Made by a program: the position numbers and the translations under genes. Under the pieces are notes generated by a model. It was not told where the DNA came from and searched no databases. It was given only the letters and a program-made list of their open reading frames with translations. A stretch of DNA of 64,000 nucleotides from Candidatus Latescibacterota bacterium (GTDB lineage: Bacteria > Latescibacterota > UBA2968 > UBA8231): positions 608,001 to 672,000 of the forward strand of contig CBDCSU010000005.1 in assembly GCA_965221775.1 (NCBI GenBank), written 5' to 3'. Of the stretch, positions 367 through 19,696 are shown piece by piece; position 1 is the first letter of the stretch; each line of letters starts with the position of its first letter.

Positions 367-1605
367 TCAGCTGCCGAAGTCGTCGAAGCGGATCATCTCC
401 TCTTCGACGCCCAGATCGTCGAGCATGGCGAGGACCGCCGTGAGCATCATGGGAGGGCCGCAGAGGTAGTACTCGATGTCCTCCGGCGCCGGGTGCTTGC
501 TCAGGTACTCGTCGAGCACGACCTGGTGGATGAAGCCGGTGGGGCCGGTCCAGTTGTCCTCGGGCAGGGGCTCGGACATGGCCACGTGGAAGGAGAAGTT
601 CGGGAACTTCTCCTCGAGGTCGCGGAAGTGGTCCTCGTAGAACAACTCCTTGCTCGACCGCGCCCCGTACCAGTAGGAGACCTTGCGTTGCGTGCCCTCG
701 GTGTGGAACAGGTGGAACAGGTGCGAGCGCAGAGGCGCCATGCCGGCGCCGCCGCCGATGTAGCACATCTCGCGCTCGGTCTCCTGGATGTAGAACTCCC
801 CGTAGGGGCCGGAGATCGTCACCTTGTCGCCCGGGTCGAGGGCGAAGGTGTACGACGAGGCCAGGCCCGGGTTGACCTTCTCCCAGCCGCCGGCCTTGCG
901 GTCGATGGGCGGCGTGGCGATGCGGATGTTGAGCATGACGATGTCGCCTTCGGCCGGGTGGTTGGCCATGGAGTAGGCCCGCACCGCCGTCTCCGTGCCC
1001 ACCGTGCGCAGGTCCCAGACCTTGAACCGGTCCCAGTCCTCGTGGAAGCGCTCGTCGATGTCGAAGTCCCGGAAGCTGCACTCGAAGGGCGGCACCTCGA
1101 TCTGGATGAAGCCGCCGGACTGGAAGTCCAGGGTCTCGCCCTCGGGCATCTTGAGGACCAGCTCCTTGATGAAGGTCGCCACGTTGTCGTTGGAGACGAC
1201 CTCGCACTCCATGCGCTTCACCGAGAACACCTCGGGCGGGACCTCGATCTTCATGTCCTGCTTGACCGTCACTTGGCAGGAGAGGCGCTCCCCCTCCTTC
1301 TCCTCGCGCCGGGTGATGTGCTCCTTCTCGGTGGCCAGGATCTCGCCGCCGCCGTCGTGGACCTTGACCCGGCACTGGGCGCAGGTGCCGCCGCCGCCGC
1401 AGGCCGAGGAGACGAAGAGGCCGTTGTCGGCGAGCACGTTCAGCAGCTTGCCGCCCGCCGGGGTGACCAGGTCGCGCTCGCCGTTGACCTCGATGTTTAC
1501 GTCGCCCGTGGCCACCAGCTTCGAGCGCGCCGCCAGGATGACGGCCACCAGGGCCAGGACCACGCCGGTGAACATGCTCACGCCGCCGAGGATGCTGTCG
1601 ATCAT
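367..1605 (-). CDS. nqrF: Na+-translocating NADH:quinone reductase subunit F
   Basis: Starts MIDSILGG; 2Fe-2S motif [12 protein letters not shown]; RAYSMAN; GGGAGMAP; CGPPMM; ends FDDFGS. Confidence 0.97.
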
Positions 1606-1619
1606 CAGTCGGTCGCTTC

Positions 1620-2234
1620 CTACAGCTGGATGCCGGAGAAGGCCATGAAGGCCATGGCCATGAGGCCCACGGTCATGAAGGTGATGCCCAGGCCGCGCAG
1701 GCCATGGGGTATGTCGGCGTAGCGCAGCTTCTCGCGGATGCCGGCGAGTCCGACGATGGCCAGGGCCCAGCCGACGCCGGAGCCGAAGCCGAAGACGACG
1801 CTCTCGCCGAAGCCGTAGTCGCGCTCGACCATGAACAGGGAGCCGCCGAGGATGGCGCAGTTCACCGTGATCAGGGGCAGGAAGATGCCCAGGGCGGTGT
1901 ACAGGGCCGGCACGTACTTGTCGAGGAACATCTCCAGGATCTGAACGCTGGCGGCGATGACACCGATGTAGCTGATGAGCCCCACGAAGGTGAGGTCGAC
2001 GCCGCCGAGGCCGAGGGCCGCCAGGGCCTCCTCGCGCAGGAGATGGCGGTAGACCAGGTTGTTCAGGGGCACGGTGATCGTCTGCACGACGACGACGGCG
2101 ATGCCGAGGCCGAAGGAGGTGGAGACGCGCTTGGAGACGGCCAGGAAGGTGCACATGCCGAGGAAGAAGGCGAGGGCGATGTTCTCGACGAAGACCGCCT
2201 TGACGAAGAGGTTGAGGCCGGCCTCGAACATCAC
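1620..2234 (-). CDS. nqrE: Na+-NQR subunit E
   Basis: [19 protein letters not shown]; [12 protein letters not shown]. Confidence 0.97.
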
Positions 2235-2884
2235 ACCCCCTCCTCAAGCGGCTGATCGACCGCAGGATCTTTGGCGATCTGCCTGGGTTTGAACCATCGC
2301 AGCACCCAGATGAAGGCGCCGATGATGAAGAAGGCGCTCGGCGGCAGCAGCATCAGGCCGTTGGGCACGTACCAGCCGCCCTCCGACGCCAGGGCCAGGA
2401 TCTCGGCGCCGAAGAGCTTGCCCGAGCCGAAGAGCTCGCGGAAGACCCCCACCACCAGCAGGATCAGGCTGTAGCCGAGGGCGTTGCCGAGGCCGTCGAG
2501 CATGCTCAGCCCGACGCCCTCCTTCATGGCGAAGGCCTCGGCCCGGCCCATGATGATGCAGTTGGTGATGATGAGCCCCACGAAGACCGACAACTGCTTG
2601 CTCATGCCGAAGGCATAGGCGCGCAGAAACTGGTCGACGATGATCACGAGGGAGGCGATGACCGTCATGTGCACGATCATGCGGATGTTGGTGGGGATGT
2701 GGGTGCGGATCAGGCTGATGGCGCCGTTGGAGAAGACGAGGACGAAGATCACCGCCAGGCACATGGTGACCGACGTCTCGAGCTTGCTGGTCACCGCCAG
2801 GGCCGAGCAGATCCCGAGGATCTGCAGGGCGATGGGGTTGTCCTCGAAGACAGGGGCCAGCAGGGTGTCTCGGGCCTTGCCCAT
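2231..2884 (-). CDS. nqrD: Na+-NQR subunit D
   Basis: [17 protein letters not shown]; [21 protein letters not shown]. Confidence 0.97.
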
Positions 2885-2887
2885 GGT

Positions 2888-3664
2888 TCAAGCCTCTCCT
2901 TCGTCCCGCAATCGCTCCAGGAAGGGGCCGTAGCCCTCCCCGCCGAGCCAGTAGTGGAGCATGTCCTGCACGCCGCGCGAGGTGATCGTCGCCCCCGACA
3001 GCCCGTCGACGCTGTGCACGGCGTCCGGGGCGCCGGCGGCGACGGCACCCCGCGGGATGCGGATCGCCACCCGGCCGTCGTCGCCGAAGGCGCGCTTGCC
3101 GTTCCACTGCGCCTTCCACGCCGGGTTGTCGACCTCGCCGCCGAGGCCGGGGGTCTCGCCGTGCTGGTAATATACGAGGCTGCGGATCGTGTCGAGGTCG
3201 TCCCGGTCGAGGGCGACGAAGCCGTAGAGGGTCGACCACAGTCCCCGGCCGAAGATCGGCATGATCACCTTGTCGACCTCTCCCCGGCGGCTGACCAGGT
3301 AGACGGGCATCAGTCTGGCGCGGCGCCGGATGCCGGCGCGGCTGCCCAGCTCGGAGGTGTCGACCCCCTGCTCGGGGTCGGCGGCGGCGGCGATGTAGTC
3401 GTAGGCGCCGGGATCGACGCCGTCCACGTAGGCGCCGGTGGACAGGTCGACGATGCGGACCTCGATGCGCTCGAAGAGCTCGTCGATGGTGCGGCCCTCC
3501 TCGGCGAGGCCCGCCGCCATCAGGATGTTGCGCTTCTTGTCCAGCAGCTTGTTGATCTCCTGGGTGGGCCGCAGCACCACCGCCGCCCCGGAGACCAGGA
3601 CCGAGCAGACGACGCACAGGAGGAAGGCGACGGTGAAGGTCTGGCCCATGCTCTCTCTGGCCAT
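2888..3664 (-). CDS. nqrC: Na+-NQR subunit C
   Basis: N-terminal TM; GLWSTLYGF; HGETPGLGGEV; FMN site VDGLSGATITS. Confidence 0.96.
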   Translation of the reverse strand: MARESMGQTFTVAFLLCVVCSVLVSGAAVVLRPTQEINKLLDKKRNILMAAGLAEEGRTIDELFERIEVRIVDLSTGAYVDGVDPGAYDYIAAAADPEQGVDTSELGSRAGIRRRARLMPVYLVSRRGEVDKVIMPIFGRGLWSTLYGFVALDRDDLDTIRSLVYYQHGETPGLGGEVDNPAWKAQWNGKRAFGDDGRVAIRIPRGAVAAGAPDAVHSVDGLSGATITSRGVQDMLHYWLGGEGYGPFLERLRDEGEA

Positions 3665-3675
3665 GGCGCCGTCCC

Positions 3676-4884
3676 CTACGATACGGCCGTGCGCAGGGCG
3701 CGCCGGCGGATGTTGGCCTGCACCACGAGGTAGTCGAAGACCGGGGCGAAGACGTTGCCGAAGAGGATGGCGAGCATCACCCCCTCCGGGAAGGCCGGAT
3801 TGACGACCCGGATGAGCACGGTCATGACCCCGATCAGGGCGCCGTAGAGCCACTTGCCGAGGTTGGTGAAGGAGGCCGACACCGGGTCGGTGGCCATGTA
3901 TACGCAACCGAAGGCGAAGCCTCCGAGCAGCAGGTGCCAGACCGGGTCGAGGGCGAACATGTGGTTGGTCTGGCTGTCGACCTGGTGCAGCAGCCAGGCC
4001 AGCAGGAAGGTGGTGGCCGTCATGCTCGCCATGATGCGCCACGAGCCGATGCCGGTGGCGATGAGGATGACGGCGCCGATGAGGCAGGCCAGGACCGAGG
4101 TCTCGCCCATCGACCCGGGGAGCACCCCGAGGAAGGCCTGCATCTTGGTGAAGCCCGCCTCCATGGGGGCGATGCCGTCGGCCGGGACCTGGCCGAGGGG
4201 GGTGGCCCGGGAGTAGCCGTCGACGGCGACCCAGATGCGGTCCCCCGTGATCTCCACCGGGTAGGCGAAGTAGAGGAAGGCGCGGGCCGTGAGGGCCGGG
4301 TTGAGGAAGTTCTTGCCCGTGCCGCCGAAGATCTCCTTGCCGATGACGACGCCGAAGGAGATGCCCACCGCCACCTGCCACAGGGGGATCGTCGGCGGCA
4401 GGGTGAGGGGGAAGAGCATGCCCGTCACCAGGAAGCCCTCGTTCACCTCGTGGCGGCGGATCGTCGAGAACAGGGCCTCCCAGAAGCCGCCCACGGCGTT
4501 GCACACCAGGAAGACCGGCAGGAACCAGAGGGCGCCGTGGACGACGTTGGCCACCAGGCTGCCCGGGTCGACGCCGACCCCGAGGACGGTGAGGACGACC
4601 CCGCGCCAGCCGTCGGCGGTGGTGCGGCCCAACTCGGCCAGGGCCAGGTTCGCCTGGTACCCCGTGTTCCACATGGCCATGAAGATGCACGGCACCATTG
4701 CCAGAACGACGGTGATCATCATGCGCTTCAGGTCGAGGCCGTCGCGCACGTGGGCGGCGTTGCGGGTGACGTCGGAGGGGGTGTACAGGAACGTGTCGAC
4801 CAGCTCGTAGAGCGGATAGAGGCGCTCGAGCCGTCCGCCCCGCTCGAAGTGGGGCTCCACCGAGTCGAGGAGCTGGCGCAGCAC
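3676..4884 (-). CDS. nqrB: Na+-NQR subunit B
   Basis: GTG start inferred; [12 protein letters not shown]; [16 protein letters not shown]; MATDPVS. Confidence 0.96.
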
Positions 4885-4886
4885 GA

Positions 4887-6245
4887 TCAGAAGTCCCTCT
4901 CGATGAGTTCGAGGTTCTGCCGCAGCAGCGGCCCGTACTCGGTCTTGCCCGGGCAGACGAAGGTGCACAGGCCGAGGTCTTCCTCGTCGAGCTCCAGCGC
5001 GCCCAGCTCGACGGCGCGCTCGGCGTCGCCGGTGATCAGGGCCCGCAGCAGGAAGGTGGGCAGGATGTCGAGGGGCATGACCGCCTCGTAGGAGCCCACC
5101 GGCACCATCGCCCGCGGCGAGCCGTTGGTGCTGGTGTCGAAGGCGAAGCGCCGCCGGGGGAGCATGGCCGAGGCGAAGACCCGCTTGACCGAGAACTTGT
5201 CCGCCCCCGGGGACTGCCAGCCGAGAAGCTCGCGCGCGCGGTTCTCGCGCACCGCCGAGACCTGCAGGTGCCAGCGGCCGAGGAAGTCGAGAGGCCCGGA
5301 GGCCTGGCGCCCGGCCAGCAGCGATCCGGAGACGACGCGCGCCTCCACGCCCGAGGTCAGCTCCCCCGCCACGAGATCGCCGAGGCAGGCGCCCATGCGC
5401 GTGCGCAGGAGCCGGGGCCGCTCGACCAACGGCCCGCCGAGGGCGACGACGCGCTCGTGGTTGATGCGCCCCGTCAGGAACAGGTCGCCCACGGCGGCCA
5501 CGTCCTGGTAGTTGATCCAGAACACCTGCTTCTGCAGGCCGGCGCCGTCGAGGAAGTGGATGTGGGTCCCGGCGAGGCCGGCCGGGTGGGGCCCGCTGAA
5601 CTCGGCCACGGTGACGTCGGCGCCGTCCGCCGGGATGGCGGCGCCCGGGGCCTTGCACAGGTAGATCTCGCCGGCTCCCAGTCGGCCGAGGGCGGCCAGG
5701 CCGGCGCGGAAGGCGTCCTCGCGGCCGGCGAGGGCGACGGCGGGGTCGGCGCACAGCGGGTTGGTGTCGATGGCGGTTACGAAGATCGAATGCGGCTGAG
5801 TACCCGGCAGCGGCACCTTGCTGTAGGGTCGCTGCCGCAGCCCGGTCCACAGGCCCGACTGCACGAGGGCGCCGCGCACCTGCTCGGGACTCAGGTCCTC
5901 CGGGCGCCGGCCGCCGATGTCGAAGGTCTCCTCGCCGACCCGGTCGTCGAGCTCGACGATGACGGAGAGGAGCCGGCGCTTGTCGCCGCGGTGGACGCCG
6001 GCGACCCTGCCCGCTCCCGGCGAGGTGAAGCGCAGTCCGGGCCGCCGCTTGTCCTCGAAGAGCAGCTGGCCGGCGCGGACGCTGTCGCCCTCCTGCACGG
6101 CCATCGTCGGCCGCAGGTCGTGGTAGTCGAGGCCGACGAGGGCCACCCGCGCCGGGGCGGGCGCGTCCTCCACGACCTGCCGGCACTCGCCCGTGATCGG
6201 CAGGTCGAGGCCCTTGCGGAGGGTGAAGGAGCGGTTCTCAGCCAT
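4887..6245 (-). CDS. nqrA: Na+-NQR subunit A
   Basis: KGLDLPITG; [13 protein letters not shown]; [18 protein letters not shown]. Confidence 0.97.
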
Positions 6246-6485
6246 GGGAGCGGCCCATGCCCGCGAGGCGGATGGCCGCCCCGGGGGGTGGCGCGCCCGC
6301 GGCGGCGGTACGGGGTCGAAACCGGTGTTTGGGAGACGCTGGCCGGAGGGCCCGATGTGGAGGGAGGGCGCAGACCGGACGCGTCGGGTGGCAGGACAAG
6401 GCTTGCTGTCGGCGATCCGTGGGGGGAGGTGTGGACTGGATACGCACCGGGAACCGGTGCTGTGACATCGTCCTGAAGTTGAGTT

Positions 6486-6514
6486 AGGTTAGGGCCGCCG
6501 CCGAGGACTGTCAA
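6486..6514 (-). promoter_or_regulatory. Sigma70-type promoter for the nqr operon
   Basis: Minus strand TTGACA (6514-6509), 17-bp spacer, TAACCT (6491-6486). Confidence 0.65.
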
Positions 6515-6594
6515 GGATTCCCGCACACCCGTCGAGGTGCCATGAAAACGAGCCCGTCGGCGCCGGCCGGCCGGCAGCCGAAGGTGGTGAATCG

Positions 6595-7830
6595 GTGAGC
6601 CGGGGGGTCGTCGTCACCGGCTTGGGGGCAGTAACGCCTCTCGGCTCCGGGGCGGCGCGTTTCTGGGACCGGTTGTGCGCCGGCCGGTCCGGGGTCGGGC
6701 CGATCACCCTCTTCGATGCCGGGGCCTTCCCGGTGCGCATCGCCGGCGAGGTCGCCGGCTTCAGCCTGCCCGCCGGGATCGACCGCAAGCGTCTCCGGCG
6801 CCTGGACCGCTACGCCCTGTTCGGAGTCGCGGCGGCGCTGCAGGCCTGGCGCGACGCCGGCGTCGAGGACCACGATCCCTGGCAGGCGGGGATCGTCCTC
6901 GGCTCCAGCCACGGCGGCGAGAGCACGGCCCTCCAGGCCGCGGCGGCCCTCGGTCCCCGGCCCTCGCCGAAAGCGGCCAGCCCCCTGGTGATCCCGCGCA
7001 TGCTCAACAACATGGCCGCCGCCCAGGCGGCGATGCTACTCGACCTGCGCGGCCCGGGCTTCGCCCTCGCCTCGGCGTGCGCCACCGGCGGCCACGCCCT
7101 CGGCGAGGCATCCGAGATCATCCGCAGGGGCGATGCCGAGGTGATGGTCGCCGGCGCCGCCGAGGCCTGCATCACCCCCCTTACCCTGGCCGGCGACCAC
7201 GCCCTCGGAGCCCTGTCGCGGCGCAGCGCCGAACCGCACCGGGCCTGCCGCCCCTTCGACCGCGACCGCGACGGTTTCGTCCTCGCCGAAGGTGCGGCCG
7301 CCCTGGTCCTGGAGGAGCGGGAGCACGCCCGCAGACGCGGCGCCCGCGTCTACGCCGAGCTCTCGGGGTACGGGGCGACGACGGACGCCGTCCACGAGAC
7401 GCGCCCGGACCCGACGGGTACGGCCGCGGCGCGGGCGATCACCCGCGCCCTGGCCAAGTCCGGGACCGGCCCCCGCCAGGTCGACGCGGTCTTCGCCCAC
7501 GCCGCCGGCACCCGGGCGGGCGACGCCGCCGAGGCCCGCGCCCTCGGCGCCTCCCTCGGGGCGGCCCTCGGCGCCATCCCGGTGACCGCCGTCAAGTCGA
7601 TGACGGGCCACATGTTCGCCGCCTCCGGGGCGGCCCAGGCGGTGGCCGCGGTCAAGGCGATCGAGGCGGGGGCCGTCCCCCCCACGATCAACTGCGGCCG
7701 CATCGACGTGACCGGGATCGCCTGCGTGCCCGGCGAGATGCTGCGGAAGCCGCTGTCGCGGGTGCTCTCCAACTCCTTCGGCTTCGGCGGCCACAACGCC
7801 GCCCTCCTCTTTTCGGCGGCGGCCGGCTGA
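6595..7830 (+). CDS. fabF: Beta-ketoacyl-ACP synthase II (FabF-like paralog) heading the biotin operon
   Basis: VVVTGLG; ASACATG (Cys); AHAAGT (His); KSMTGH (His); SNSFGFGGHN; stop overlaps the bioB ATG (TGATG). Confidence 0.9.
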   Translation: MSRGVVVTGLGAVTPLGSGAARFWDRLCAGRSGVGPITLFDAGAFPVRIAGEVAGFSLPAGIDRKRLRRLDRYALFGVAAALQAWRDAGVEDHDPWQAGIVLGSSHGGESTALQAAAALGPRPSPKAASPLVIPRMLNNMAAAQAAMLLDLRGPGFALASACATGGHALGEASEIIRRGDAEVMVAGAAEACITPLTLAGDHALGALSRRSAEPHRACRPFDRDRDGFVLAEGAAALVLEEREHARRRGARVYAELSGYGATTDAVHETRPDPTGTAAARAITRALAKSGTGPRQVDAVFAHAAGTRAGDAAEARALGASLGAALGAIPVTAVKSMTGHMFAASGAAQAVAAVKAIEAGAVPPTINCGRIDVTGIACVPGEMLRKPLSRVLSNSFGFGGHNAALLFSAAAG

Positions 7831-8822
7831 TGACCGAGTCCCCCACCCTTCCCGCCTTCGCCGCCCTCGCCGACAAGGCGATCGCCGGCGAACCCCTTGC
7901 GCGCGAGGAGTGCCACGCGGTTCTCGCCACGCCGGACGGCGAGGTTCCCGGTCTGCTCGCCGAGACCCACCGCGTGCGCCGCCGCTTCTGCGGCGACAAG
8001 GTGCACCTGCACGTCCTGACGAACGCCAAGAGCGGCCTCTGTCCCGAGGACTGCGGCTACTGCTCGCAGTCGCGCCTGTCGGAAGCGGCGATCGAGAAGT
8101 ACCCCATGGTCAGCCGGGAGCGGCTCCTCGAAGAAGCACACGCCGCCCGCCGCTCCCGGGCCCGGCGCTTCTGCATCGTCACCAGCGGCCGCGGCGCCAC
8201 CTGGGGCGAGGTGGAGCACCTGGCCGACGCCGTGCGCACCATCCGCGAGGAGGTCGGCATCGGGATCTGCGCCTGCGTCGGTCTCCTCGACGAAGAGAAG
8301 GCGAAGGCCCTGAAGGAGGCCGGTGTCGACCGGTTGAACCACAATCTCAATACCAGCGAGCGGTTCACCCCCGGCATCGTCACCACCCACGGATACGACG
8401 ACCGCGTGAAGACGTTGGAGGCGGCGCGCAAGGCGGGCCTCGACCTGTGCAGCGGCGCCATCTTCGGCATGGGGGAAACCGACGATGACGTGATCGACGT
8501 CCTCATGGCGCTCCGCGACCTCGACCCGCAGTCGATACCGGTCAACTTCCTCCATCCCATCGACGGAACCCCCCTGGAAGGGACGTGGAGGCTGACCCCC
8601 CTGCACTGCCTGCGGATCCTGTCTCTGGCGCGGCTGCTGCACCCGCACCGGGAGATCCGCGTCGCCGGCGGGCGCGAGCTGCATCTGCGGTCGCTGCAGC
8701 CGCTGGCCCTCTACGCGGCCAACTCGATCTTCGTCGAGGGCTACCTCACCACCCCCGGACAGGGCACGAGGGAGGCCCTGCGGATGATCGAGGACATGGG
8801 GTTCGAGGTCGAAGAGGCGTGA
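7830..8822 (+). CDS. bioB: Biotin synthase
   Basis: NAKSGLCPEDCGYCSQS radical-SAM motif; NHNLNTS; IPVNFL; RVAGGRE; YLTT. Confidence 0.97.
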   Translation: MTESPTLPAFAALADKAIAGEPLAREECHAVLATPDGEVPGLLAETHRVRRRFCGDKVHLHVLTNAKSGLCPEDCGYCSQSRLSEAAIEKYPMVSRERLLEEAHAARRSRARRFCIVTSGRGATWGEVEHLADAVRTIREEVGIGICACVGLLDEEKAKALKEAGVDRLNHNLNTSERFTPGIVTTHGYDDRVKTLEAARKAGLDLCSGAIFGMGETDDDVIDVLMALRDLDPQSIPVNFLHPIDGTPLEGTWRLTPLHCLRILSLARLLHPHREIRVAGGRELHLRSLQPLALYAANSIFVEGYLTTPGQGTREALRMIEDMGFEVEEA

Positions 8823-10171
8823 CCGCGGGGCCGCCGCCCGGCATCTGGAACGCCTTCACGCCGATGGCCCGCTACGACAGCGAGCCGAGGCTGGTCATCG
8901 ACCGCGCCGAGGGCAACCGCATCATCGACAGGGACGGCCGCGAGTACATCGACGGCGTGGCCTCGATCTGGGCGATCGTCCACGGCCACGGGCACCCGCA
9001 CATCGTCGAGGCGATCCGGCGCCAGGCGGAGCGGCTGCAGCACAGCACCCTCCTCGGCGCCGCCCACTCCCCCGCCCTCGAGCTGACGCAACGGCTCGCC
9101 GCGCACGTGCCCGGGGGGCTTACCCGCTTCTTCTACAGCTCCGACGGCGCCAGCGCCGTCGAGGCGGCCCTCAAGATGGCGCTCCAGTACTGGGTCAACA
9201 CCGGCCGGCCCGAGCGCCGCCGCTTCGCGGTGATGGAGATGGCCTACCACGGCGACACCCTCGGCGCCGCCTCGCTGGGAGGGGAGGGGGCCTTCCGCAA
9301 GCCCTACGAGTCGGCCATGTTCGAGCCCCTGCGGTTCGCCAACCCCCATCCCCGGGGCTGCGGGCTCTGCTCCCCCGAAGGCGGATGCAGCCTCGCCTGC
9401 GTCGGGTCCCTGGAGCGTCTGCTCGACGAGCGCGGCGGAGAGATCGCCGCGGTGGTCGTCGAGCCCCGGGTGCAGGGGGCCGCGGGGATCGTCGTCGCCC
9501 CGGAGGGACATCTGGCCCGGGTCGCCGACCTCTGCCGCTCTCACGGCGTGCTGCTTATCGCCGACGAGGTGGCCACCGGCTTCGGCAAGACCGGCGCCAT
9601 GTTCGCCTGCGACCTCGAGGGGGTCAGCCCCGACATCATGGTGCTGGGCAAGGGGATCAGCGGCGGCTGCCTGCCGCTGTCGGCGACGGTGGCGAGCGAG
9701 GGTGTCTACGAAGCCTTCCACGACGCGCACGACTACGCCAAGACCCTCTACCATGGACACACCTACGGGGGCAACCCGATCGCCTGCGCCGCCGCCCTGG
9801 CGAGCCTCGACATCTTCGAGCGCGAGCCGGTCCTGGCGAGGGTTGGCGACCGCGCCGCCTGCCTCGGCGAGAGGCTGAGAGAGGTCCTCGGCGAACATCC
9901 CCTCGTGGGGGAGATCCGCCAGCAGGGCCTGATGGCCGCCGTCGATCTGGTCGCCGACCGCTGCTCCCGACGGCCGCTGCCCGCCTCGGAGCAGACCGGA
10001 TGGCGGGCCTGCATGAAGGCGCGGGACCGCGGCGTCTTCGTCCGCCCCATCGGCGACACCGTGGTGGTCATGCCCCCCCTCTCCATCGAGGAAGGCGAGC
10101 TCTCACAGATCTGCGAGGCGGTGAGGTATGGGCTCGACAGCGTCGCCCGGTCCACCCCGGCCCTGGGCTGA
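8819..10171 (+). CDS. bioA: 7,8-diaminopelargonate aminotransferase
   Basis: AVEAALKMA; YHGDTLGA; IADEVATGFGKTG; LGKGISGG; HGHTYGGNP; located in bio cluster. Confidence 0.94.
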   Translation: MTAGPPPGIWNAFTPMARYDSEPRLVIDRAEGNRIIDRDGREYIDGVASIWAIVHGHGHPHIVEAIRRQAERLQHSTLLGAAHSPALELTQRLAAHVPGGLTRFFYSSDGASAVEAALKMALQYWVNTGRPERRRFAVMEMAYHGDTLGAASLGGEGAFRKPYESAMFEPLRFANPHPRGCGLCSPEGGCSLACVGSLERLLDERGGEIAAVVVEPRVQGAAGIVVAPEGHLARVADLCRSHGVLLIADEVATGFGKTGAMFACDLEGVSPDIMVLGKGISGGCLPLSATVASEGVYEAFHDAHDYAKTLYHGHTYGGNPIACAAALASLDIFEREPVLARVGDRAACLGERLREVLGEHPLVGEIRQQGLMAAVDLVADRCSRRPLPASEQTGWRACMKARDRGVFVRPIGDTVVVMPPLSIEEGELSQICEAVRYGLDSVARSTPALG

Positions 10172-11309
10172 GTTCCTGCGCTCGGAGCGCCGGCGCCTCG
10201 GCCGGCTCGGTCTGCGCCGGTCGGTGGTGACCCCGGAGAGCCGCGCCGGGGTCCGGGCCACCCTCTCCGGCCGCGAGTACGTCCTCTTCACCTCGAACGA
10301 CTACCTCGGCCTCGCCGCCCATCCGGAGGTGACCGCCGCGGCCGGGGAGGCAGCCCGCCGCTTCGGCGCCGGTGCCGCATCGGCGCGGCTGCTGCACGGC
10401 TCCACCCCCCTGCACGAGGACCTGCAGGAACGCCTGGCGCGGCTCACGGGGCGGCCTTCCTCCCTGCTCTTCAGCTCGGGGTACATGGCCAACCTGGGGG
10501 TCCTCGCCGCCCTGGCCGGGCGGGGGGACGCGATCTTCTACGACGAGCGCTCCCACGCCTCGATCATCGACGGCGCCAGGCTGTCCCGCGCCACCGCACT
10601 GGCCTTCCCGCACAACGACGCCGGCCGCCTCGACGACCTCCTGCGCCAGACCCCCGCCCGCCGGCGCATGGTCGTCACCGAGAGCGTCTTCAGCATGGAC
10701 GGCGACCTGGCGCCCCTCCGGGCCCTGGGGGAGACCGCCTCGCGCCACGAGGCGCTGCTGGTCGTCGACGAGGCGCACGCCATCGGGGTCTTCGGGGATG
10801 GCGCCGGTCTCCTGGGGGACCTTGATCTCGAGATCCCGGCCGTCATCACCGGGACCCTGTCGAAGGCGCTGGGCTCGATCGGCGGCTTTGCCGCCGGCCA
10901 CGGGGCCCTCATCGAGTACCTCGTCGACCGCGCCCGCACCTTCATCTTCGATACCGCCCTGCCGCCGTCGGCGGTTGCGGCGGCGGCCGCCGCCCTCGAG
11001 GTCGCGCGGAACGAGCCCTGGCGCCGGAAGCGGGTCCTCGACCTCGGCGCGACGCTGCGCTCCGGTCTGCAGTGCCTCGGCGGCCCTGACTGCCACTCCG
11101 CCTCGCAGATCGTGCCGCTGCTCCTCGGCAGGCCGGCCGCGGCGGTAGCCGCGGAGGAACATCTCAAGAGCCACGGGATCCTGGCACGCGCCGTGCGGCC
11201 CCCCGCGGTGCCCCGCGGCACGTCGCGGATCCGCTTCGGGGTCACCGCCGCCCACGAGGAGGAGCACCTGCGGCAGGTCATCGGGGCGATGGAGTCCTTC
11301 GTTGGGTAG
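10128..11309 (+). CDS. bioF: 8-amino-7-oxononanoate synthase
   Basis: SNDYLGL; SGYMAN; HASIIDG; SVFSMDGD; DEAHAIG; TLSKALG. Confidence 0.95.
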   Translation: MGSTASPGPPRPWAEFLRSERRRLGRLGLRRSVVTPESRAGVRATLSGREYVLFTSNDYLGLAAHPEVTAAAGEAARRFGAGAASARLLHGSTPLHEDLQERLARLTGRPSSLLFSSGYMANLGVLAALAGRGDAIFYDERSHASIIDGARLSRATALAFPHNDAGRLDDLLRQTPARRRMVVTESVFSMDGDLAPLRALGETASRHEALLVVDEAHAIGVFGDGAGLLGDLDLEIPAVITGTLSKALGSIGGFAAGHGALIEYLVDRARTFIFDTALPPSAVAAAAAALEVARNEPWRRKRVLDLGATLRSGLQCLGGPDCHSASQIVPLLLGRPAAAVAAEEHLKSHGILARAVRPPAVPRGTSRIRFGVTAAHEEEHLRQVIGAMESFVG

Positions 11310-12003
11310 GATCGTGCTGGTGACCGGGACCGACACCGGCGTCGGCAAGACGGTCGCCGCCGCCTGGCTGGCGTGGAAGGCGTCGAGGGCGGGAAGGGTG
11401 GCCCTGCTTAAGGCGGTGCAGACCGGCGCCGGTCCCGGGGTCGACGGCGACGAGGCGTTCTACCGCGGAGCCCTCCGCGGCACCGGCGTGACCCTGGGGA
11501 CGCTGGCCTCCTTCCCCGAGCCGCTGGCGCCGCTGATCGCGGCGAGGCGCGCCGGACGGCCGATCGACTTCGAGGGCCTGGCGCGGCAGTGCGAGTCCGT
11601 GGCCGCGGCTCACGACCTCACTCTCGTGGAGGGCTCGGGAGGGCTCCTGGTGCCGATCGACGAGCGGCGGGATGTCGCCGACCTCGCCCGGCGCCTGAAG
11701 GCCTGCCTGGCCGTCGTCGTCCGCCCCGGCCTCGGGACGCTGAACCACACCGCCCTCACCCTGGAGGCGGCGGAGCGCCGGGGCCTGGAGGTCCCCCTGC
11801 TGATCTGCAGCGGAACCTCACCCGACGCGGACGTGGTCGAGGCCGAGAACCTGCGCTTCTTCGCGGCCCTGCGGGAGGCGCGCCAGGAGCGCGCGCCGAT
11901 GGCGTTGATGGTGATCGAGCGCGCCCTCGGAGGCGACGCCTCCAGGCCGGAGAGGCTCGCCGTCAGGATCGAGGGACCGCCGCCGGATTGGCTGCCCGCT
12001 TGA
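11302..12003 (+). CDS. bioD: Dethiobiotin synthase
   Basis: VTGTDTGVGKT; KAVQTG; VEGSGGLLVP; LGTLNHT. Confidence 0.95.
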   Translation: MGRIVLVTGTDTGVGKTVAAAWLAWKASRAGRVALLKAVQTGAGPGVDGDEAFYRGALRGTGVTLGTLASFPEPLAPLIAARRAGRPIDFEGLARQCESVAAAHDLTLVEGSGGLLVPIDERRDVADLARRLKACLAVVVRPGLGTLNHTALTLEAAERRGLEVPLLICSGTSPDADVVEAENLRFFAALREARQERAPMALMVIERALGGDASRPERLAVRIEGPPPDWLPA

Positions 12004-12012
12004 GCCGCCCCT

Positions 12013-12056
12013 GCCGGCCTCCGGTCTTGATCGCCCGGAGGCCGGCCGCCTATACT
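12013..12056 (+). promoter_or_regulatory. 12-bp hairpin after bioD overlapping a putative promoter for the symporter
   Basis: Inverted repeat GCCGGCCTCCGG (12013-12024) / CCGGAGGCCGGC (12035-12046); TTGATC (12027) N18 TATACT (12051). Confidence 0.5.
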
Positions 12057-12118
12057 GGAACGCGCAGCCTGCCGCAGAATCCCTCACCCACACACCCGAC
12101 CCGAAAGAGGAGGAATCC

Positions 12119-13642
12119 ATGGGCAGAGCCCTGGGAGCCCTCTTCCTGCTCACCACCATGGCGGCCCCGGCCCTGGCCGAGGACGCAGCCGGTGGGAGCG
12201 GGATCCAGCATCACCTGAGCCGCCTCGACGCGCTCTTCGCCGACACCGTCAAGCTGCTGGAGACCTTCCTCTTCGTCGACTTCGGCACCGGCGTCCCCCT
12301 CATCGTCGCCGTCCTCGTGGCCGGCGGCGTCTACTTCAGCTTCTACTTCGGCTGGCTGTCGATCCGCGGCTTCAAGCACTCCATCGACATCATCCGCGGG
12401 CGCTACGACAACCCCGACGACCCGGGCGAGATCTCCCACTTCCAGGCCCTCACCAGCGCCCTGTCGGCGACGATCGGCCTCGGCAACATCGCCGGCGTCG
12501 CCATCGCCGTCAGCGTCGGCGGTCCCGGGGCCGTGTTCTGGATGCTCCTCACCGCCCTCATCGGCATGTCCTCCAAGCTCGCCTCCTGCACCCTGGCGGT
12601 GATGTACCGCAACGTCCACCCCGACGGCCGCGTCTCCGGCGGACCGATGTACTACCTGGAGAAGGGGCTGGCGACGATCGGCCTGGCCCAGTTCGGCCGC
12701 ACCCTGGCGGTGATCTTCGCCTTCCTCACCATCGGCGGCTCCCTGGGCGGCGGCAACATGTTCCAGGCCAACCAGACCCTCGAGATCCTCGCCACCGTGT
12801 CGCCCTGGTTCAAGAGCTACAACTGGGTCATGGGCCTGATCATGGCCGGCCTCGTGGCCCTGGTCATCATCGGCGGCATCCGCCGCATCGGCCGGGTGAC
12901 GTCGCGGATCGTCCCCGGCATGTGCCTGCTCTACGCCATCACCGCGATCTTCATCATCGTGTGGAACATCCAGGCGGTGCCGGCCACCCTCGCGCGGATC
13001 GTCTCCGACGCCTTCACCGGTCCGGCGATGTACGGCGGCTTCCTCGGCGTCCTCGTCATGGGCGTCCGGCGCGCCGCCTTCTCCAACGAGGCCGGCCTCG
13101 GCTCGGCCGCCTTCGCCCACGCCGCGGCCAAGACCGACGAGCCCGCGCGCGAGGGCATGGTGGCGATGATCGGCCCCTTCATCGACACCATCGTCATCTG
13201 CCTGATGACGGCGCTGGTCTGCACCATCACCGGCGTCTTCGAGCAGCCCGAGTTCCAGTCGGGGGGCGGCAGCATCGTCGGCGTGCGCATGACCGCCGCC
13301 GCCTTCGACTCCTTCATCCCCGGGGCCCGCTACGTGCTGGCCGTGGCGGTCCTGCTCTTCGCCTACTCGACGATGATCTCCTGGTCCTACTACGGCGAGC
13401 GCGCCTGGGAGTACCTCTTCGGCCAGGGCTCCGTCCTCATCTACCGCCTTATCTTCGTGTTCTTCGTCTTCGCCGGATCGGTGGTCACCTTGGGCAACGT
13501 CATCGGGTTCTCGGACATGATGATCCTGGGGATGGCTTTCCCCAACATCCTCGGCGGGGTGCTGCTGAGCCGGCAGATCAAGGCGACGCTGAACGAGTAC
13601 TGGGGGCGGCTGCAGCGCGGCGAGATGAAGGTCTATCGCTGA
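12119..13642 (+). CDS. Sodium:alanine/glycine symporter (AGCS family)
   Basis: GEISHFQAL; GLGNIAGVA; GGPGAVFWM; FSNEAGLGS; WSYYGE. Confidence 0.93.
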   Translation: MGRALGALFLLTTMAAPALAEDAAGGSGIQHHLSRLDALFADTVKLLETFLFVDFGTGVPLIVAVLVAGGVYFSFYFGWLSIRGFKHSIDIIRGRYDNPDDPGEISHFQALTSALSATIGLGNIAGVAIAVSVGGPGAVFWMLLTALIGMSSKLASCTLAVMYRNVHPDGRVSGGPMYYLEKGLATIGLAQFGRTLAVIFAFLTIGGSLGGGNMFQANQTLEILATVSPWFKSYNWVMGLIMAGLVALVIIGGIRRIGRVTSRIVPGMCLLYAITAIFIIVWNIQAVPATLARIVSDAFTGPAMYGGFLGVLVMGVRRAAFSNEAGLGSAAFAHAAAKTDEPAREGMVAMIGPFIDTIVICLMTALVCTITGVFEQPEFQSGGGSIVGVRMTAAAFDSFIPGARYVLAVAVLLFAYSTMISWSYYGERAWEYLFGQGSVLIYRLIFVFFVFAGSVVTLGNVIGFSDMMILGMAFPNILGGVLLSRQIKATLNEYWGRLQRGEMKVYR

Positions 13643-13675: not shown

Positions 13676-15469
13676 TCAGTCGAGGGCGGGGGCCTCGCCC
13701 TCCTGAAGGAAGTCCTCCTCGAGGAGCAGGTCGGAGAACGACCGCCTCCAGGCATCCGGAAACACCTGGTCGGGCTGGACCTCGAGCCTCACCCGCCACA
13801 GCATGGCGAGGCGGCTGATTCCGAAGGTCACGGTGGCCACCCTCCCTCCCCGGAGCCGCACCTCCAGGCCCTGCTTCACGCCCCGGTGCTCGACCTCGAT
13901 CCAGTGGGTTCCGGCGGCGAGGTTGTGGAGCACCACCCCCTGCAGGTCCGGGCGCAGCAGGTCGATCCGGTAGCGGCCGTCGATGCGCACCGCGATCCCC
14001 CCGGGGCCGAAGCTCTCGCCCAGGGGCGAGCGCAGCACCGCCACCGAGCCGTCGAGGGCGTCCTCCAGGGCCGGGTCCACCTCGGAGGCCTCGGCCAGGG
14101 CGGCCGGGTCGCCGAGGGGCAGGACGCCGGCGGCGGCCACCCGCGGCCGGTTGCGGAACCAGGCCGGCTGCTCCTGGCGGCTGGCGAGGGTCCCGGTCCG
14201 GGTGAGGGCGTGGACGACCAGGTTGACCCCGGCCACCAGGGCCGGTCCCGACCAGCTCGGCGGCGGCGGCTCCTCCCCCTCCTCCGCCGGCTCGTCCTCA
14301 TCGGCCATCTCCGACCAGGCGGCGTGGAGGGGCAGGTCGCTGACGATGGCCACCAGGGTGTCGCCGAGGGAGACGCCCCACAGGCCGTTGCGCCGGACGC
14401 CCTCGGCGGGGTCCACCAGCTCGGGATCGATGTTGGGCGGCGGCGGGGGAGCCGGAGGCTCCGGCGTCGGGTAGCTCCACGACTGCCTGAGGTCCTTCAG
14501 GTAGTCCCAGCGCTCCTTGTCCTCGCCGGGAAAGCCGCCGGAGAAGGTGTAGAACGAGTGGTAGACGGGGTGCTCCGACGGGACCGGCCGGATCCCCGGG
14601 GCCTCCGGAAGGAGCTCGCGCAGGAGGGTCACGGCCTCTTTCAGGAACAGACCGCCCCCCTCGATGTAGAGCAGGCCGCCGCCGCGCAGGTACTCCTCCA
14701 GGAGCGCCCTCTCCTCCGGGGAGAGCTGCAGCCGCGGCCAGTCCCCGACCGTCGGCAGGCCTTCGCCCTGCACCAGGAAGTGGATGGGGTCGCGCAGCAG
14801 CTCGCGGCCGGTGAAGTAGTGGACGGTCTCGGGCCGCACCCGCGTCAGCAGCGAGGTGCGGTCGCGCATGAAGCGCGACAGGTGGTCCAGCCCCCGTCCG
14901 CCGCCGGCGCCGCGGGTGAAGACCCGCGTCAGGTTGACGAAGCCGGTCATGTGCCGGCGGTTGTCGGGGTCGGAGCGGACGATCGCCCGCTCGCGGCCCT
15001 GCGCCAGGTCCCAGATGCGCATCAGGTCGAGGGACTGGCGGCGGATCGAGTCCCCGAGGGCCTGGGCGGCGGCCAGGGACCTGACGAGGTCGGGCTCGGT
15101 CTCGGACCGGAAGCTGTCGGCCCGCGCGGCGATATCGAAGGAACGCAGGGCCACGGGGGCGTCCGGCGCCGGCGCCGGCCGGTGCGGCAGCGACGGATCC
15201 TCGAGCCGCGGGCGGGGCAGGAGCCCGGACGGCCGGTACTCCATCTCGGTCCTCGGCCGGACCTCCTCCGGGCCGGCGGCGGTGAAGCGCTCGGGCTCGA
15301 AGCGCAGGACCTGGCTCAGGCGGGCGCGGAAGGCCTCGGACTCGCGCTCGCCGCGGCGCCAGTCGTCGATGGTCAGCAGCACCGCGAGGTGCAGGATCAG
15401 GGAGAGGAGCAGGCTGCCCGAAAGGCGCAGGCCGGGGCGGCGGCGGGGCTTGCGGGGTCCCTCGTTCAC
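13676..15469 (-). CDS. Membrane-anchored protein with DUF4159-like domain
   Basis: N-terminal TM (LLLSLILHLAVLL); LEEYLRGGGLLYIE and HPVYHSFYTF resemble DUF4159. Confidence 0.6.
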   Translation of the reverse strand: MNEGPRKPRRRPGLRLSGSLLLSLILHLAVLLTIDDWRRGERESEAFRARLSQVLRFEPERFTAAGPEEVRPRTEMEYRPSGLLPRPRLEDPSLPHRPAPAPDAPVALRSFDIAARADSFRSETEPDLVRSLAAAQALGDSIRRQSLDLMRIWDLAQGRERAIVRSDPDNRRHMTGFVNLTRVFTRGAGGGRGLDHLSRFMRDRTSLLTRVRPETVHYFTGRELLRDPIHFLVQGEGLPTVGDWPRLQLSPEERALLEEYLRGGGLLYIEGGGLFLKEAVTLLRELLPEAPGIRPVPSEHPVYHSFYTFSGGFPGEDKERWDYLKDLRQSWSYPTPEPPAPPPPPNIDPELVDPAEGVRRNGLWGVSLGDTLVAIVSDLPLHAAWSEMADEDEPAEEGEEPPPPSWSGPALVAGVNLVVHALTRTGTLASRQEQPAWFRNRPRVAAAGVLPLGDPAALAEASEVDPALEDALDGSVAVLRSPLGESFGPGGIAVRIDGRYRIDLLRPDLQGVVLHNLAAGTHWIEVEHRGVKQGLEVRLRGGRVATVTFGISRLAMLWRVRLEVQPDQVFPDAWRRSFSDLLLEEDFLQEGEAPALD

Positions 15470-15608
15470 GTCCTCTGGAGGCCTCCTCCCCGGGGCGAGG
15501 CAGGGGGGCCGCCGGAGTTGGCCCTCCGGGCGGCTTTCCTTATTTTACTCATTCCGGTTCCGATCCGCTTTCCCTCCCGGAACCGCCACTCCCACCTCAG
15601 AGAATCCG

Positions 15609-18299
<2,691 letters not shown>

Positions 18300-18307
18300 G
18301 AGGACCC

Positions 18308-19693
18308 GTGGCCGAGTTCAAGCTGCCCGATCTGGGCGAGAACATCGAAGCGGGCGAGGTCATCAACGTCCTCGTCGCCGAGGGCGACGCCCTGGCCGAG
18401 GACCAGCCCGTGATCGAGCTGGAGACCGACAAGGCGGTCATCGAGGTGCCCTCCACGGTGAGCGGCACGGTGTCGAAGGTGCTGGTGGCCGAGGGCGACC
18501 GCGCCCAGGTGGGCCAGGTGATCCTCACCGTCGAGGAGGTTGGAGCCGAAGCCGCGCCCCTTGCGGCTCCCGCCGATGGGGCGGCCGCCTCCCCCGCTGA
18601 GGGTGCTCCCGCCGCTGCTGCCGAGGACCCGAGCCCTGCCGAGATCGGCGAGACCGGCCAATCAACGTCTGCCGCCGACGATGGGGCCGCCGCTCCCCCG
18701 CCCGAAGCGGGCTCCCCCGCGCCTGCCGGCGACCGGGAGGCAGCCGACGGCGGCGGGCCCGCCGAAGCCGCACCGGCCGCCGGAGACGAGGCCAGGCTGA
18801 TCCCGGCGGCGCCCTCGGTGCGCCGGCTGGCGCGCGAGATCGGCGTCGACATCGCCCGGGCGGAGGGCACGGGCCCGGGCGGCCGCATCAGCGAGGAGGA
18901 CGTGAAGACCCTCTCCCGGCGGCTTCACGAGAGCCCCGCCGCGGCGCCCGGATCGCCCGCGGCGGCGGCGCTGCCCGACTTCTCGAAGTGGGGCGAGATC
19001 GAGGTCGAGCCCTTCAGCAACGTGCGCCGCATCACCGCGCAGCGCATGGCCGCGGCCTGGTCGGCGATCCCCCACGTGACCCAGCACGACCAGGCCGACA
19101 TCACCGGGCTCGAGGCTTGGCGCAAGGGCTACGCCCCCCAGGTGGAGAAGGCCGGCGCCAGGCTGACGCCCACGGCGCTGCTCCTCAAGGTGGCGGCCTC
19201 GGCCCTGCGCGCCTTCCCGAGCTTCAACGCCAGCATCGACATGGCGGGCGAGCAGATCATCTTCAAGAGCTACGTGCACATCGGCGTCGCCGTGGACACG
19301 CCCCGGGGGCTGCTGGTGCCGGTGATCCGCGACGTCGACCGCAAGTCGGTGACCGAGATCTCCCTCGAGCTGGGGGAGATGGCGGAGCGGACCCGCACCG
19401 GCAAGGTGGCCGTGACCGACCTGGAGGGCGGCACCTTCACGGTGAGCAACCTCGGCGGCCTGGGGGGCACCGCCTTCACGCCGATCGTCAACGCGCCGGA
19501 GGTGGCCATCCTCGGCGCCGCCCGCAGCCGCACCGAGCCCGTCTACGTCGACGGCGAGCTGCAGCCGCGCCTGATCCTGCCTCTCTCCCTGTCCTACGAC
19601 CACCGGCTGATCGACGGCGCCGACGGGGTCCGCTTCCTGCGCCATCTCTGCCAGGGGCTGGAGAACCCCTACTTCCTCGCCTTCGAGGGCTGA
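18308..19693 (+). CDS. aceF: Dihydrolipoamide acetyltransferase E2
   Basis: Single lipoyl domain ETDKA; Ala/Pro linker; PSVRRLARE; DHRLIDG. Confidence 0.95.
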   Translation: MAEFKLPDLGENIEAGEVINVLVAEGDALAEDQPVIELETDKAVIEVPSTVSGTVSKVLVAEGDRAQVGQVILTVEEVGAEAAPLAAPADGAAASPAEGAPAAAAEDPSPAEIGETGQSTSAADDGAAAPPPEAGSPAPAGDREAADGGGPAEAAPAAGDEARLIPAAPSVRRLAREIGVDIARAEGTGPGGRISEEDVKTLSRRLHESPAAAPGSPAAAALPDFSKWGEIEVEPFSNVRRITAQRMAAAWSAIPHVTQHDQADITGLEAWRKGYAPQVEKAGARLTPTALLLKVAASALRAFPSFNASIDMAGEQIIFKSYVHIGVAVDTPRGLLVPVIRDVDRKSVTEISLELGEMAERTRTGKVAVTDLEGGTFTVSNLGGLGGTAFTPIVNAPEVAILGAARSRTEPVYVDGELQPRLILPLSLSYDHRLIDGADGVRFLRHLCQGLENPYFLAFEG

Positions 19694-19696
19694 CTC

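Follow-up and report, generated by a model that had tools for sequence, protein, structure and literature searches.

Why should a condensing enzyme of the fatty acid synthesis (FAS) type stand at the head of a biotin operon? The question is raised by a 64,000-nucleotide stretch of DNA from a Candidatus Latescibacterota bacterium (hereafter the window; positions 608,001 to 672,000 of the forward strand of contig CBDCSU010000005.1, GenBank assembly GCA_965221775.1), in which bioB, bioA, bioF and bioD are preceded by a gene for a protein of the FabF type, i.e. a beta-ketoacyl-ACP synthase II (KAS II; ACP, acyl carrier protein). The answer that we favour, with a probability of about 0.65-0.7, is that this ketosynthase makes the pimeloyl (C7 dicarboxylate) moiety of biotin. 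The proposal is built on sequence comparisons, a predicted structure and published precedents, and it follows up a preliminary description of the locus that had pointed to polar and charged substitutions in the acyl pocket of the enzyme.

Linkage and translational coupling join the ketosynthase gene to bioBAFD. The operon reads ketosynthase-bioB-bioA-bioF-bioD and fills a slot between a divergent nqr operon and agcS; the TGA stop of the ketosynthase gene and the ATG of bioB overlap by one base (TGATG at 7828-7832), and the GTG start of bioA overlaps the stop of bioB (GTGA at 8819-8822). Both nqrA (56-97% identity) and agcS are conserved neighbours in relatives. The features of the slot are the following, with bit scores given against family models.

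4887..6245, minus strand: nqrA, left border of the slot; an open reading frame (ORF) named from the nqrA-F operon order rather than by a family scan
6246..6594, plus strand: intergenic region between nqrA and the ketosynthase gene, with a Shine-Dalgarno-like AAGGTGG just upstream of the GTG start
6595..7830, plus strand: bio-linked FabF-type (KAS II) ketosynthase gene; GTG start, 411 amino acids (aa), from ORF and translation
7830..8822, plus strand: bioB (biotin synthase); TIGR00433, 387.3 bits, cut-off 225
8819..10171, plus strand: bioA; TIGR00508, 479.6 bits, cut-off 405
10128..11309, plus strand: bioF (8-amino-7-oxononanoate synthase), start uncertain; TIGR00858, 418.3 bits, just below the cut-off of 426.45 and the best match by far
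11302..12003, plus strand: bioD (dethiobiotin synthase); TIGR00347, 123.6 bits, cut-off 83.3
12119..13642, plus strand: agcS (sodium:alanine symporter family), closing the slot on the right; TIGR00835, 404.7 bits

The protein has both ketoacyl-synthase domains (PF00109 and PF02801 in Pfam, 4e-48 and 2.2e-30), and its nearest solved structures are those of FabF (1j3n, 3.9e-98; Escherichia coli 2gfw, 1.3e-91). An AlphaFold2 model, computed with 81 sequences of the clade described below as input, has a predicted local distance difference test score (pLDDT) of 94.2 and a predicted template modelling score (pTM) of 0.95, and a Foldseek search with it likewise returned FabF structures as top matches, with a template modelling score (TM) of 0.97 and a root-mean-square deviation (rmsd) of 1.3 A. 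As this confident model superimposes on FabF structures, residue-by-residue mapping onto E. coli FabF is sound. A KAS III fold, also considered, is not what the protein has, the best families and structures all being KAS II. Its identity to true FabFs is 41-46%, and it reaches 427.6 bits against the broader subfamily model NF005589 (cut-off 387), so annotation pipelines would call it beta-ketoacyl-ACP synthase II; plain KAS II is indeed the name that proteins of its clade bear in public sources. All this would suit an ordinary second FabF, serving membrane or special lipids and standing beside bioB without functional meaning. It fits that explanation less well that the score against the NCBIfam fabF equivalog TIGR03150 (440.2 bits) stays below the cut-off of 493.75, and that the genome already has a canonical housekeeping FabF with normal motifs, 46% identical to the window protein and encoded in a fabD-fabG-acpP-fabF-rnc locus. 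The presence of the latter also led us to reject the idea that the window ketosynthase is the organism's only FabF.

To describe the pocket, we used a MAFFT alignment of 183 sequences in which 85 clade members, chosen by His, Glu and Asp at the positions of E. coli I108, L111 and F202, were set against 94 generic FabF-like proteins. The catalytic apparatus is intact, as had been stated before for the Cys-His-His triad and GFGG: Cys162, His302 and His339 align with E. coli C163, H303 and H340, and Lys334, Asp264 and Asn401 with K335, D265 and N404, the cysteine standing within ACATG (aa 161-165). The five motifs previously described as departing from FabF are all present in the protein, and the E. 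coli counterparts named with them (GSGIGGL, VPSTIVN, GVGGF, YHMT and GHLL) all occur in K-12 FabF (NC_000913.3). Along the gene the relevant elements are arranged as follows.

6901..6921, plus strand: GSSHGGE, aa 103-109; Ser105, His106 and Glu109 replace E. coli G107, I108 and L111
6991..7011, plus strand: IPRMLNN, aa 133-139; Arg135 replaces E. coli S136 (Met in most FabF)
7078..7080, plus strand: codon of the catalytic Cys162 (E. coli C163); Cys in 85/85 clade members and 94/94 generic proteins
7168..7197, plus strand: Cys192 to TLAGD, aa 192-201 (TLAGD itself 197-201); Cys192, Thr197 and Asp201 replace A193, G198 and F202
7390..7401, plus strand: VHET, aa 266-269, in gating loop 2; Glu268 replaces M269, His267 and Thr269 are kept
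7492..7512, plus strand: F-A-H-A-A-G-T, aa 300-306, with the catalytic His302; Phe300 for N301, Ala303 for G304
7606..7638, plus strand: GHMF (aa 338-341, with the catalytic His339) through Gln348 (E. coli E349), from the alignment
7780..7791, plus strand: GFGG, gating loop 1, aa 396-399, conserved as in FabF

The replacements run through nearly the whole clade. His106, Glu109 and Asp201 are invariant in the 85 members, as the selection criterion dictates; position 105 is Ser or Thr in 83/85, Thr197 occurs in 85/85 and Cys192 in 81/85. Position 135 is Arg in 73/85 and Lys in 8/85 clade members, against 8/94 and 11/94 of the generic proteins. Glu268 is found in 80/85, where generic proteins have Ile, Val or Met; Phe300 in 82/85, as opposed to Asn in 85/94; and Gln348 in 84/85, as opposed to Glu in 86/94. 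The two catalytic histidines, His302 and His339, are invariant, and Thr306 (E. coli T307) is kept. In the numbering of the literature, the full set of changes is G107S, I108H, L111E, S136R, A193C, G198T, F202D, M269E, D289K, N301F, G304A, E349Q and M85W. Two of the five motifs first put forward have to be trimmed or dropped from it: in VHET the glutamate is a true replacement, the histidine being the conserved E. coli H268 of gating loop 2, which is not catalytic, and GHMF is no altered motif at all, since the clade has GH[LM][LMF], the same range as ordinary FabF.

Do these residues line the acyl channel, as the preliminary description supposed? For L111, S136, A193 and G198 we presume so from homology. 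For I108 and F202 the supposition finds backing in the literature: these two residues constitute the back gate of FabF, which gates the pocket at C7-C8 and opens for chains longer than C8 (PMC9006962). M269 lies in gating loop 2 (residues 265-275), which caps the GFGG gate (PMC7138838). A FabF with the I108F substitution is limited to short chains, its product being mainly C6-C8 (PMC9006962; bioRxiv 10.64898/2026.02.26.708327).

Far from being noise, the pocket changes set apart a single clade with good support. In an alignment of 179 FabF-like proteins of 380-460 aa, gathered from two database searches, 83 combine His for I108 with Glu for L111 and Asp for F202; these are essentially all those with at least about 49% identity to the query, and below about 49% the ordinary motifs come back (GSGIGG[LIM], xxxGF and YH[IM]T). 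The commonest residues of the 94 generic proteins at the same three positions are I/V/A, I/L/V and F/Y/L, respectively, isolated His or Glu at single positions occurring in a few of them (P0114, P0056, P0145). Nine more positions, which played no part in the selection, co-vary with the clade (W85, S105, C192, T197, E268, K288, F300, A303 and Q348). A FastTree tree of 170 rows unites 73 signature rows and the variant P0206 in one clade (74 rows) with a Shimodaira-Hasegawa-like (SH-like) support of 99, which is weaker evidence than a full likelihood search would give; the sister of this clade is P0007, which has an intermediate pattern. The clade signature can be written as G-S-[ST]-H-G-G-E, T-x-x-G-D, H-E-T, F-A-H-A and Gln at the E349 position, and the window protein fits it. 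That the altered residues should be conserved in bio-linked homologues and foreign to ordinary FabF was borne out on both counts: they are conserved in the alignment and at the loci of the carriers from the Latescibacterota phylum and Chloroflexota, and G[STAC][STA]HGGE was seen in 0/160 of the ordinary FabF loci listed (40-48% identity), which came from scans of genome contigs with the single protein and of metagenome contigs with alignment A2 and served as a negative control.

The clade is rare and patchy. The A2 profile at loose thresholds fails to separate it, ordinary FabFs reaching 500-555 bits, and carriers were called at E <= 1e-172 with a motif check. In the window's phylum they amount to 7/168 genomes, namely 4/10 of the window's genus and 3/3 of another genus, in which the start codon of the ketosynthase gene is ATG at the same codon. 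KAS-bioB-bioA stands beside nqrA, in the same slot, in all seven, and bioF and bioD are visible in six; the contig of the seventh (G002) begins inside bioA, so that bioF, bioD and agcS fall outside the sequence. Within the window's genus, bioB occurs in exactly the four of ten genomes that carry the ketosynthase. Both genes are missing from the other six (G001, G003, G005, G006, G008 and G009), two of which are 95-96% complete; these six are probably biotin auxotrophs, the cassette being variably present within the genus. A region upstream of the ketosynthase gene that is conserved within the genus is not conserved with the second genus, and no shared operator was recognised there in the six genomes in which one was sought.

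Outside the phylum, six Chloroflexota carriers were found: three in a phylum-wide sample of 401 genomes, one more in an order of 39 genomes and two more in a 151-genome sample of another order. Four are bio-linked, with the arrangements bioF-A-D-B-KAS (G266), bioF-A-D-B followed by two small ORFs and KAS (G550), bioB-KAS on a short contig (G584) and bioF-A-D-KAS (G683). The other two (G418, G649) have no bio gene within about 9 kb of the ketosynthase gene, and their bioB is on another contig. The same threshold gave no clade member among 351 genomes of a Bacillota phylum and none among 301 Desulfobacterota genomes. The two small ORFs between bioB and KAS in G550 (L138 10141-11023; 169 and 119 aa) look toxin-antitoxin-like by eye.

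This distribution bears on the notion of an ordinary second FabF. The two unlinked Chloroflexota genes would agree with it, but the linkage to bio genes recurs in two phyla, in different gene orders and with overlapping codons, the presence of the ketosynthase tracks that of bioB within the genus, and throughout the clade charged or polar residues stand in place of the two back-gate residues that long chains require. We therefore regard that explanation as very improbable.

A pimelate-making role would also agree with what the carrier genomes appear to lack. A family-model search of the window's own genome gave no BioC over the cut-off (best 55 bits), no BioW and no BioH over the cut-off, a negative that covers BioZ through the FabH model only and excludes BioI and BioE, which were not searched for. 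Among five Chloroflexota carriers, BioB was found in 5/5, BioC over the cut-off in 0/5 and BioW in 0/5.

The history of the slot can be read from a comparison of window positions 4887-13642 with the nqrA-agcS slot of other genera in the same family, which are without the ketosynthase gene (L263-L269; relatives G151, G019, G165, G017, G011, G013 and G118). There, bioB lies on one strand; on the other are bioF, one gene like bioH and one like bioC, then bioD and bioA. The BioH-like gene encodes an alpha/beta-hydrolase with BioH as its best match, and the BioC-like gene a methyltransferase that scores 129 bits with the BioC model over a full-length alignment; no orthologue of this methyltransferase was found in five carriers. 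The BioB of the window shares 62-65% identity with the BioB of the Chloroflexota carriers and no more than 36-39% with the BioB of its own family, and BioA, BioF and BioD lean toward the Chloroflexota carriers too, less strongly. The simplest reading of these comparisons is that a foreign KAS-bioBAFD cassette replaced, or refilled, a native cluster of the bioC/bioH type. The window would then show such a cluster swapped for a foreign ketosynthase-type cassette in one chromosomal slot. Judging from the sequences, relatives also have a panB-like ORF between bioF and agcS (L263 14610-15494; L264 13052-14062); in the window, 115 bases separate bioD and agcS, and the panB-like gene is not in the slot.

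How could the ketosynthase make a pimeloyl chain? Our tentative preference, held at less than even odds, is a one-round, glutaryl-primed route to 3-oxopimeloyl-ACP, which would make the enzyme a FabF-type analogue of BioZ. The preliminary description had already suggested that the polar pocket would suit a short, carboxyl-terminated acyl chain, an interpretation that the comparisons made here support in part. A glutaryl thioester would be loaded onto Cys162, with its omega-carboxyl placed where the I108/F202 back gate is rebuilt as His106/Asp201 and surrounded by Ser105, Thr197, Glu109 and Arg135; the rebuilt gate would bind the polar chain end and shut the tunnel to longer chains. Decarboxylative condensation with malonyl-ACP, driven by His302 and His339, would yield 3-oxopimeloyl-ACP, which the housekeeping FabG, FabZ and FabI would reduce to pimeloyl-ACP for BioF. 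The carboxyl oxygens of Cys162-bound glutaryl should lie at about C6-C7 of a fatty chain, and it is because the carboxyl would thus fall just in front of the rebuilt gate that we favour a glutaryl primer; a single glutaryl-primed round is favoured because dedicated reductive enzymes are absent from the operon. Inferred in this scheme are the substrate, the part played by each residue and where the glutaryl comes from.

Since the ketosynthase itself would supply the pimeloyl moiety, methylation by BioC and demethylation by BioH would be unneeded. In E. coli the malonyl carboxyl is masked as a methyl ester, and the accepted explanation for this is that FAS enzymes have hydrophobic active sites (PMC7645780). 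As described in the same work, BioZ together with E. coli FabG, FabA and FabI converts glutaryl-coenzyme A (CoA) and malonyl-ACP to pimeloyl-ACP, so only a condensing enzyme would need to be added. The glutaryl carboxyl in BioZ is held by side-chain hydrogen bonds from Ser84 and Ser287 (PMC12625853).

Several observations weigh against this proposal. Acyl-ACPs are the primers that KAS II enzymes normally accept, and in this genome we identified no source of either glutaryl-ACP or glutaryl-CoA. The two Chloroflexota genes unlinked to bio genes are a further difficulty, and so are the limits of the pimelate-gene search given above, together with the state of the window's own assembly (96.8% complete, 7.75% contamination). 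The genome also has a second KAS III-like gene at C6:1034898-1035863, in a different cluster, which scores 146 bits with the fabH model (below the cut-off) and for which a BioZ-like function is conceivable. Finally, the residues near the pocket that are specific to the clade include three acidic ones (E109, D201 and E268), which could repel a carboxylate if they did not pair with His106, Arg135 or Lys288; such pairs may, in turn, plug the tunnel. As to the surroundings of the KAS III-like gene, it adjoins the gene of a third ketosynthase (32% identity to the window protein) in what seems to be a separate cluster of lipid or polyketide type (C6:1032574-1035863).

The acidic residues would suit a positive or neutral polar chain end at least as well, and the substrate identity of the window ketosynthase is wholly inferred. 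The enzyme might accordingly be tied to biotin synthesis and have another job, such as priming or decarboxylating malonyl-ACP for the pathway, acting on another polar chain (hydroxy, amino or oxo) or making a non-pimeloyl product. We consider this improbable, given that BioF needs a pimeloyl thioester and that nothing else known in the carrier genomes supplies one; moreover, Cys162 is kept, so the protein is not of the Cys-to-Gln decarboxylase type, and the operon is without other tailoring genes.

A more serious competitor concerns the primer. Pimeloyl-ACP could be made from three malonates in two rounds, with malonyl (C3) and then glutaryl (C5) primers bearing free carboxyls, without a methyl ester and with the housekeeping FabG, FabZ and FabI reducing both sets of intermediates. 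This stays the main alternative because of the habit of KAS II enzymes to use ACP-bound primers and because no glutaryl source was identified; malonyl-ACP is always present, so none would be needed. The changes N301 to Phe, G304 to Ala and E349 to Gln by the catalytic histidines could suit a malonyl primer, and Ser105, being nearer the cysteine, could meet a C3 carboxyl. A malonyl-start route has also been proposed for the Desulfovibrio bio cluster (PMC10102598). Yet that cluster, thought to be malonyl-started, has a dedicated reductase, dehydratase and ACP, none of which accompanies the ketosynthase gene here, and free-carboxyl C5 intermediates are stated not to be tolerated because the active sites of FAS enzymes are hydrophobic (PMC7645780). 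Moreover, from what is known of their chemistry, 3-oxoglutaryl-ACP with a free carboxyl is a beta-keto acid and prone to decarboxylation, and the rebuilt residues, at the C7-C8 position, fit a C5 diacid better than a C3 one. We hold the two-round route to be rather unlikely. Unlikely, too, in our view, is that this ketosynthase alone, through a back gate turned polar and limiting for chain length, would let ordinary FAS build pimeloyl-ACP from malonyl-ACP, from C3 to C5 to C7 with the carboxyl free, dispensing with the methyl ester, with a dedicated ACP, reductase or dehydratase and with lysine-derived glutaryl-CoA.

The glutaryl-primed proposal invites comparison with BioZ, a 3-ketoacyl-ACP synthase encoded in bio clusters of alpha-proteobacteria. 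In both cases, one condensing-enzyme gene is found within a bioBFDA-type cluster of genomes without BioC, BioH and BioW, as described for BioZ in PMC7645780, PMC8024396 and PMC12625853; in both, a ketosynthase scaffold of FAS is re-tuned for a charged omega-carboxyl primer (putatively so for the window protein); and in both, only the condensing step would be added, with housekeeping FabG, FabA/Z and FabI finishing the chain. The scaffolds differ, however: BioZ is a FabH homologue (KAS III) with a Cys-His-Asn triad that uses glutaryl-CoA, whereas the window protein is homologous to FabF and has the Cys-His-His triad, Lys and GFGG. The specificity of BioZ resides in a loop and Ala317, with Ser84 and Ser287 holding the carboxyl, whereas in the window protein the back gate itself is rebuilt.

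Closer in scaffold is the enzyme of the Desulfovibrio-type biotin cluster (DVU2563, annotated as FabF), a ketosynthase of the KAS I/II type in a bio cluster of organisms without bioC and bioH, as reported in PMC10102598. According to that paper, which cites Rodionov 2004 and Lin & Cronan 2011, DVU2563 is genetically required for growth of D. vulgaris without biotin, and less hydrophobic active sites and an absence of methyl esters have already been suggested for the cluster. Its equipment is nevertheless different, since it has its own ACP, a short-chain dehydrogenase/reductase (SDR), two FabZ-like proteins and often a nitroreductase, whereas the window operon consists of the ketosynthase and bioBAFD only. 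We compared the window protein with a ketosynthase from a Desulfobacteraceae metagenome-assembled genome (G700), where positions 3660-11510 of L275 hold birA, then bioB and genes for a FabZ-like protein, an SDR, an ACP, a nitroreductase-like protein, the KAS and a hotdog protein, followed by bioF and bioD, a layout that agrees with the extended biotin cluster of Desulfovibrio type as described in PMC10102598. This ketosynthase is 35% identical to the window protein and forms a long branch, used as the outgroup of the tree. I108 and F202 are represented in it by Leu and Tyr, and H268 by Ala, so that it lacks the His/Asp gate; with the window clade it has in common Glu for L111 and Arg for S136, possibly a partial convergence. 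The idea that the clade is simply the Desulfovibrio-type ketosynthase was rejected on the grounds of the 35% identity, the missing His/Asp gate and the failure to find the clade at the above threshold in the 301 Desulfobacterota genomes, the Desulfovibrio side being represented in this comparison by the L275 protein, not by DVU2563. The window enzyme thus resembles BioZ in its logic of one added condensing enzyme and the Desulfovibrio enzyme in its scaffold, and is identical to neither.

As for E. coli FabF itself (PDB 2GFW, 2GFY), the fold is the same over about 411 columns, and the catalytic Cys, His, His and Lys, the GFGG loop 1, Asp265 and Asn404 are identical; the window protein differs in having His/Asp for I108/F202 and ten further clade-specific changes, in being encoded in a bio operon and not in a fab cluster, and in belonging to a separate clade. 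With the BioC-BioH pathway, whose genes or their likes fill the nqrA-agcS slot of the relatives, the window system would share its end, pimeloyl-ACP for BioF. The means differ: in the BioC-BioH pathway the carboxyl is disguised as a methyl ester so that ordinary FabB and FabF can serve, whereas in the window system it appears to be the condensing enzyme that has been adapted.

In the PMC and bioRxiv literature that we searched, no paper was found to describe a FabF-type ketosynthase standing alone in a bio operon. Already known are the idea of a less hydrophobic ketosynthase in a bio cluster (Desulfovibrio) and a functional precedent (BioZ). The clade provides a concrete candidate for the source of pimelate in lineages without BioC/BioH, BioW/BioI, BioZ or BioE, and it also bears on the annotation of its members, now named plain KAS II. 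If the proposal holds, the FabF scaffold can acquire specificity for a short, charged diacid primer through a rebuilt I108/F202 gate, a modification of interest for engineering ketosynthases that make dicarboxylic acids; FabF has been described as the ancestor of polyketide ketosynthases (PMC9006962). If, instead, the primer were malonyl only, the locus would represent a further independent route to the biotin precursor, carried between phyla in a portable KAS-bioBAFD cassette.

Among other genes seen in passing, the neighbours of the slot are ordinary. The nqrA-F operon occupies positions 367-6245 of the window (minus strand), as read from ORF translations, and on the other side of the slot a DUF4159 protein (Pfam) is encoded at 13676-15469 (minus strand), with genes of the pyruvate dehydrogenase complex (aceE, dihydrolipoamide acyltransferase and lpd) at 14856-21115 (plus strand), again from ORF translations. 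Elsewhere in the same genome, C6:2198926-2210460 contains open frames of about 3,300-4,000 aa with several ketosynthase domains, PfaA-type or polyketide-synthase-like, and such giant multi-ketosynthase frames are also found in many relatives.

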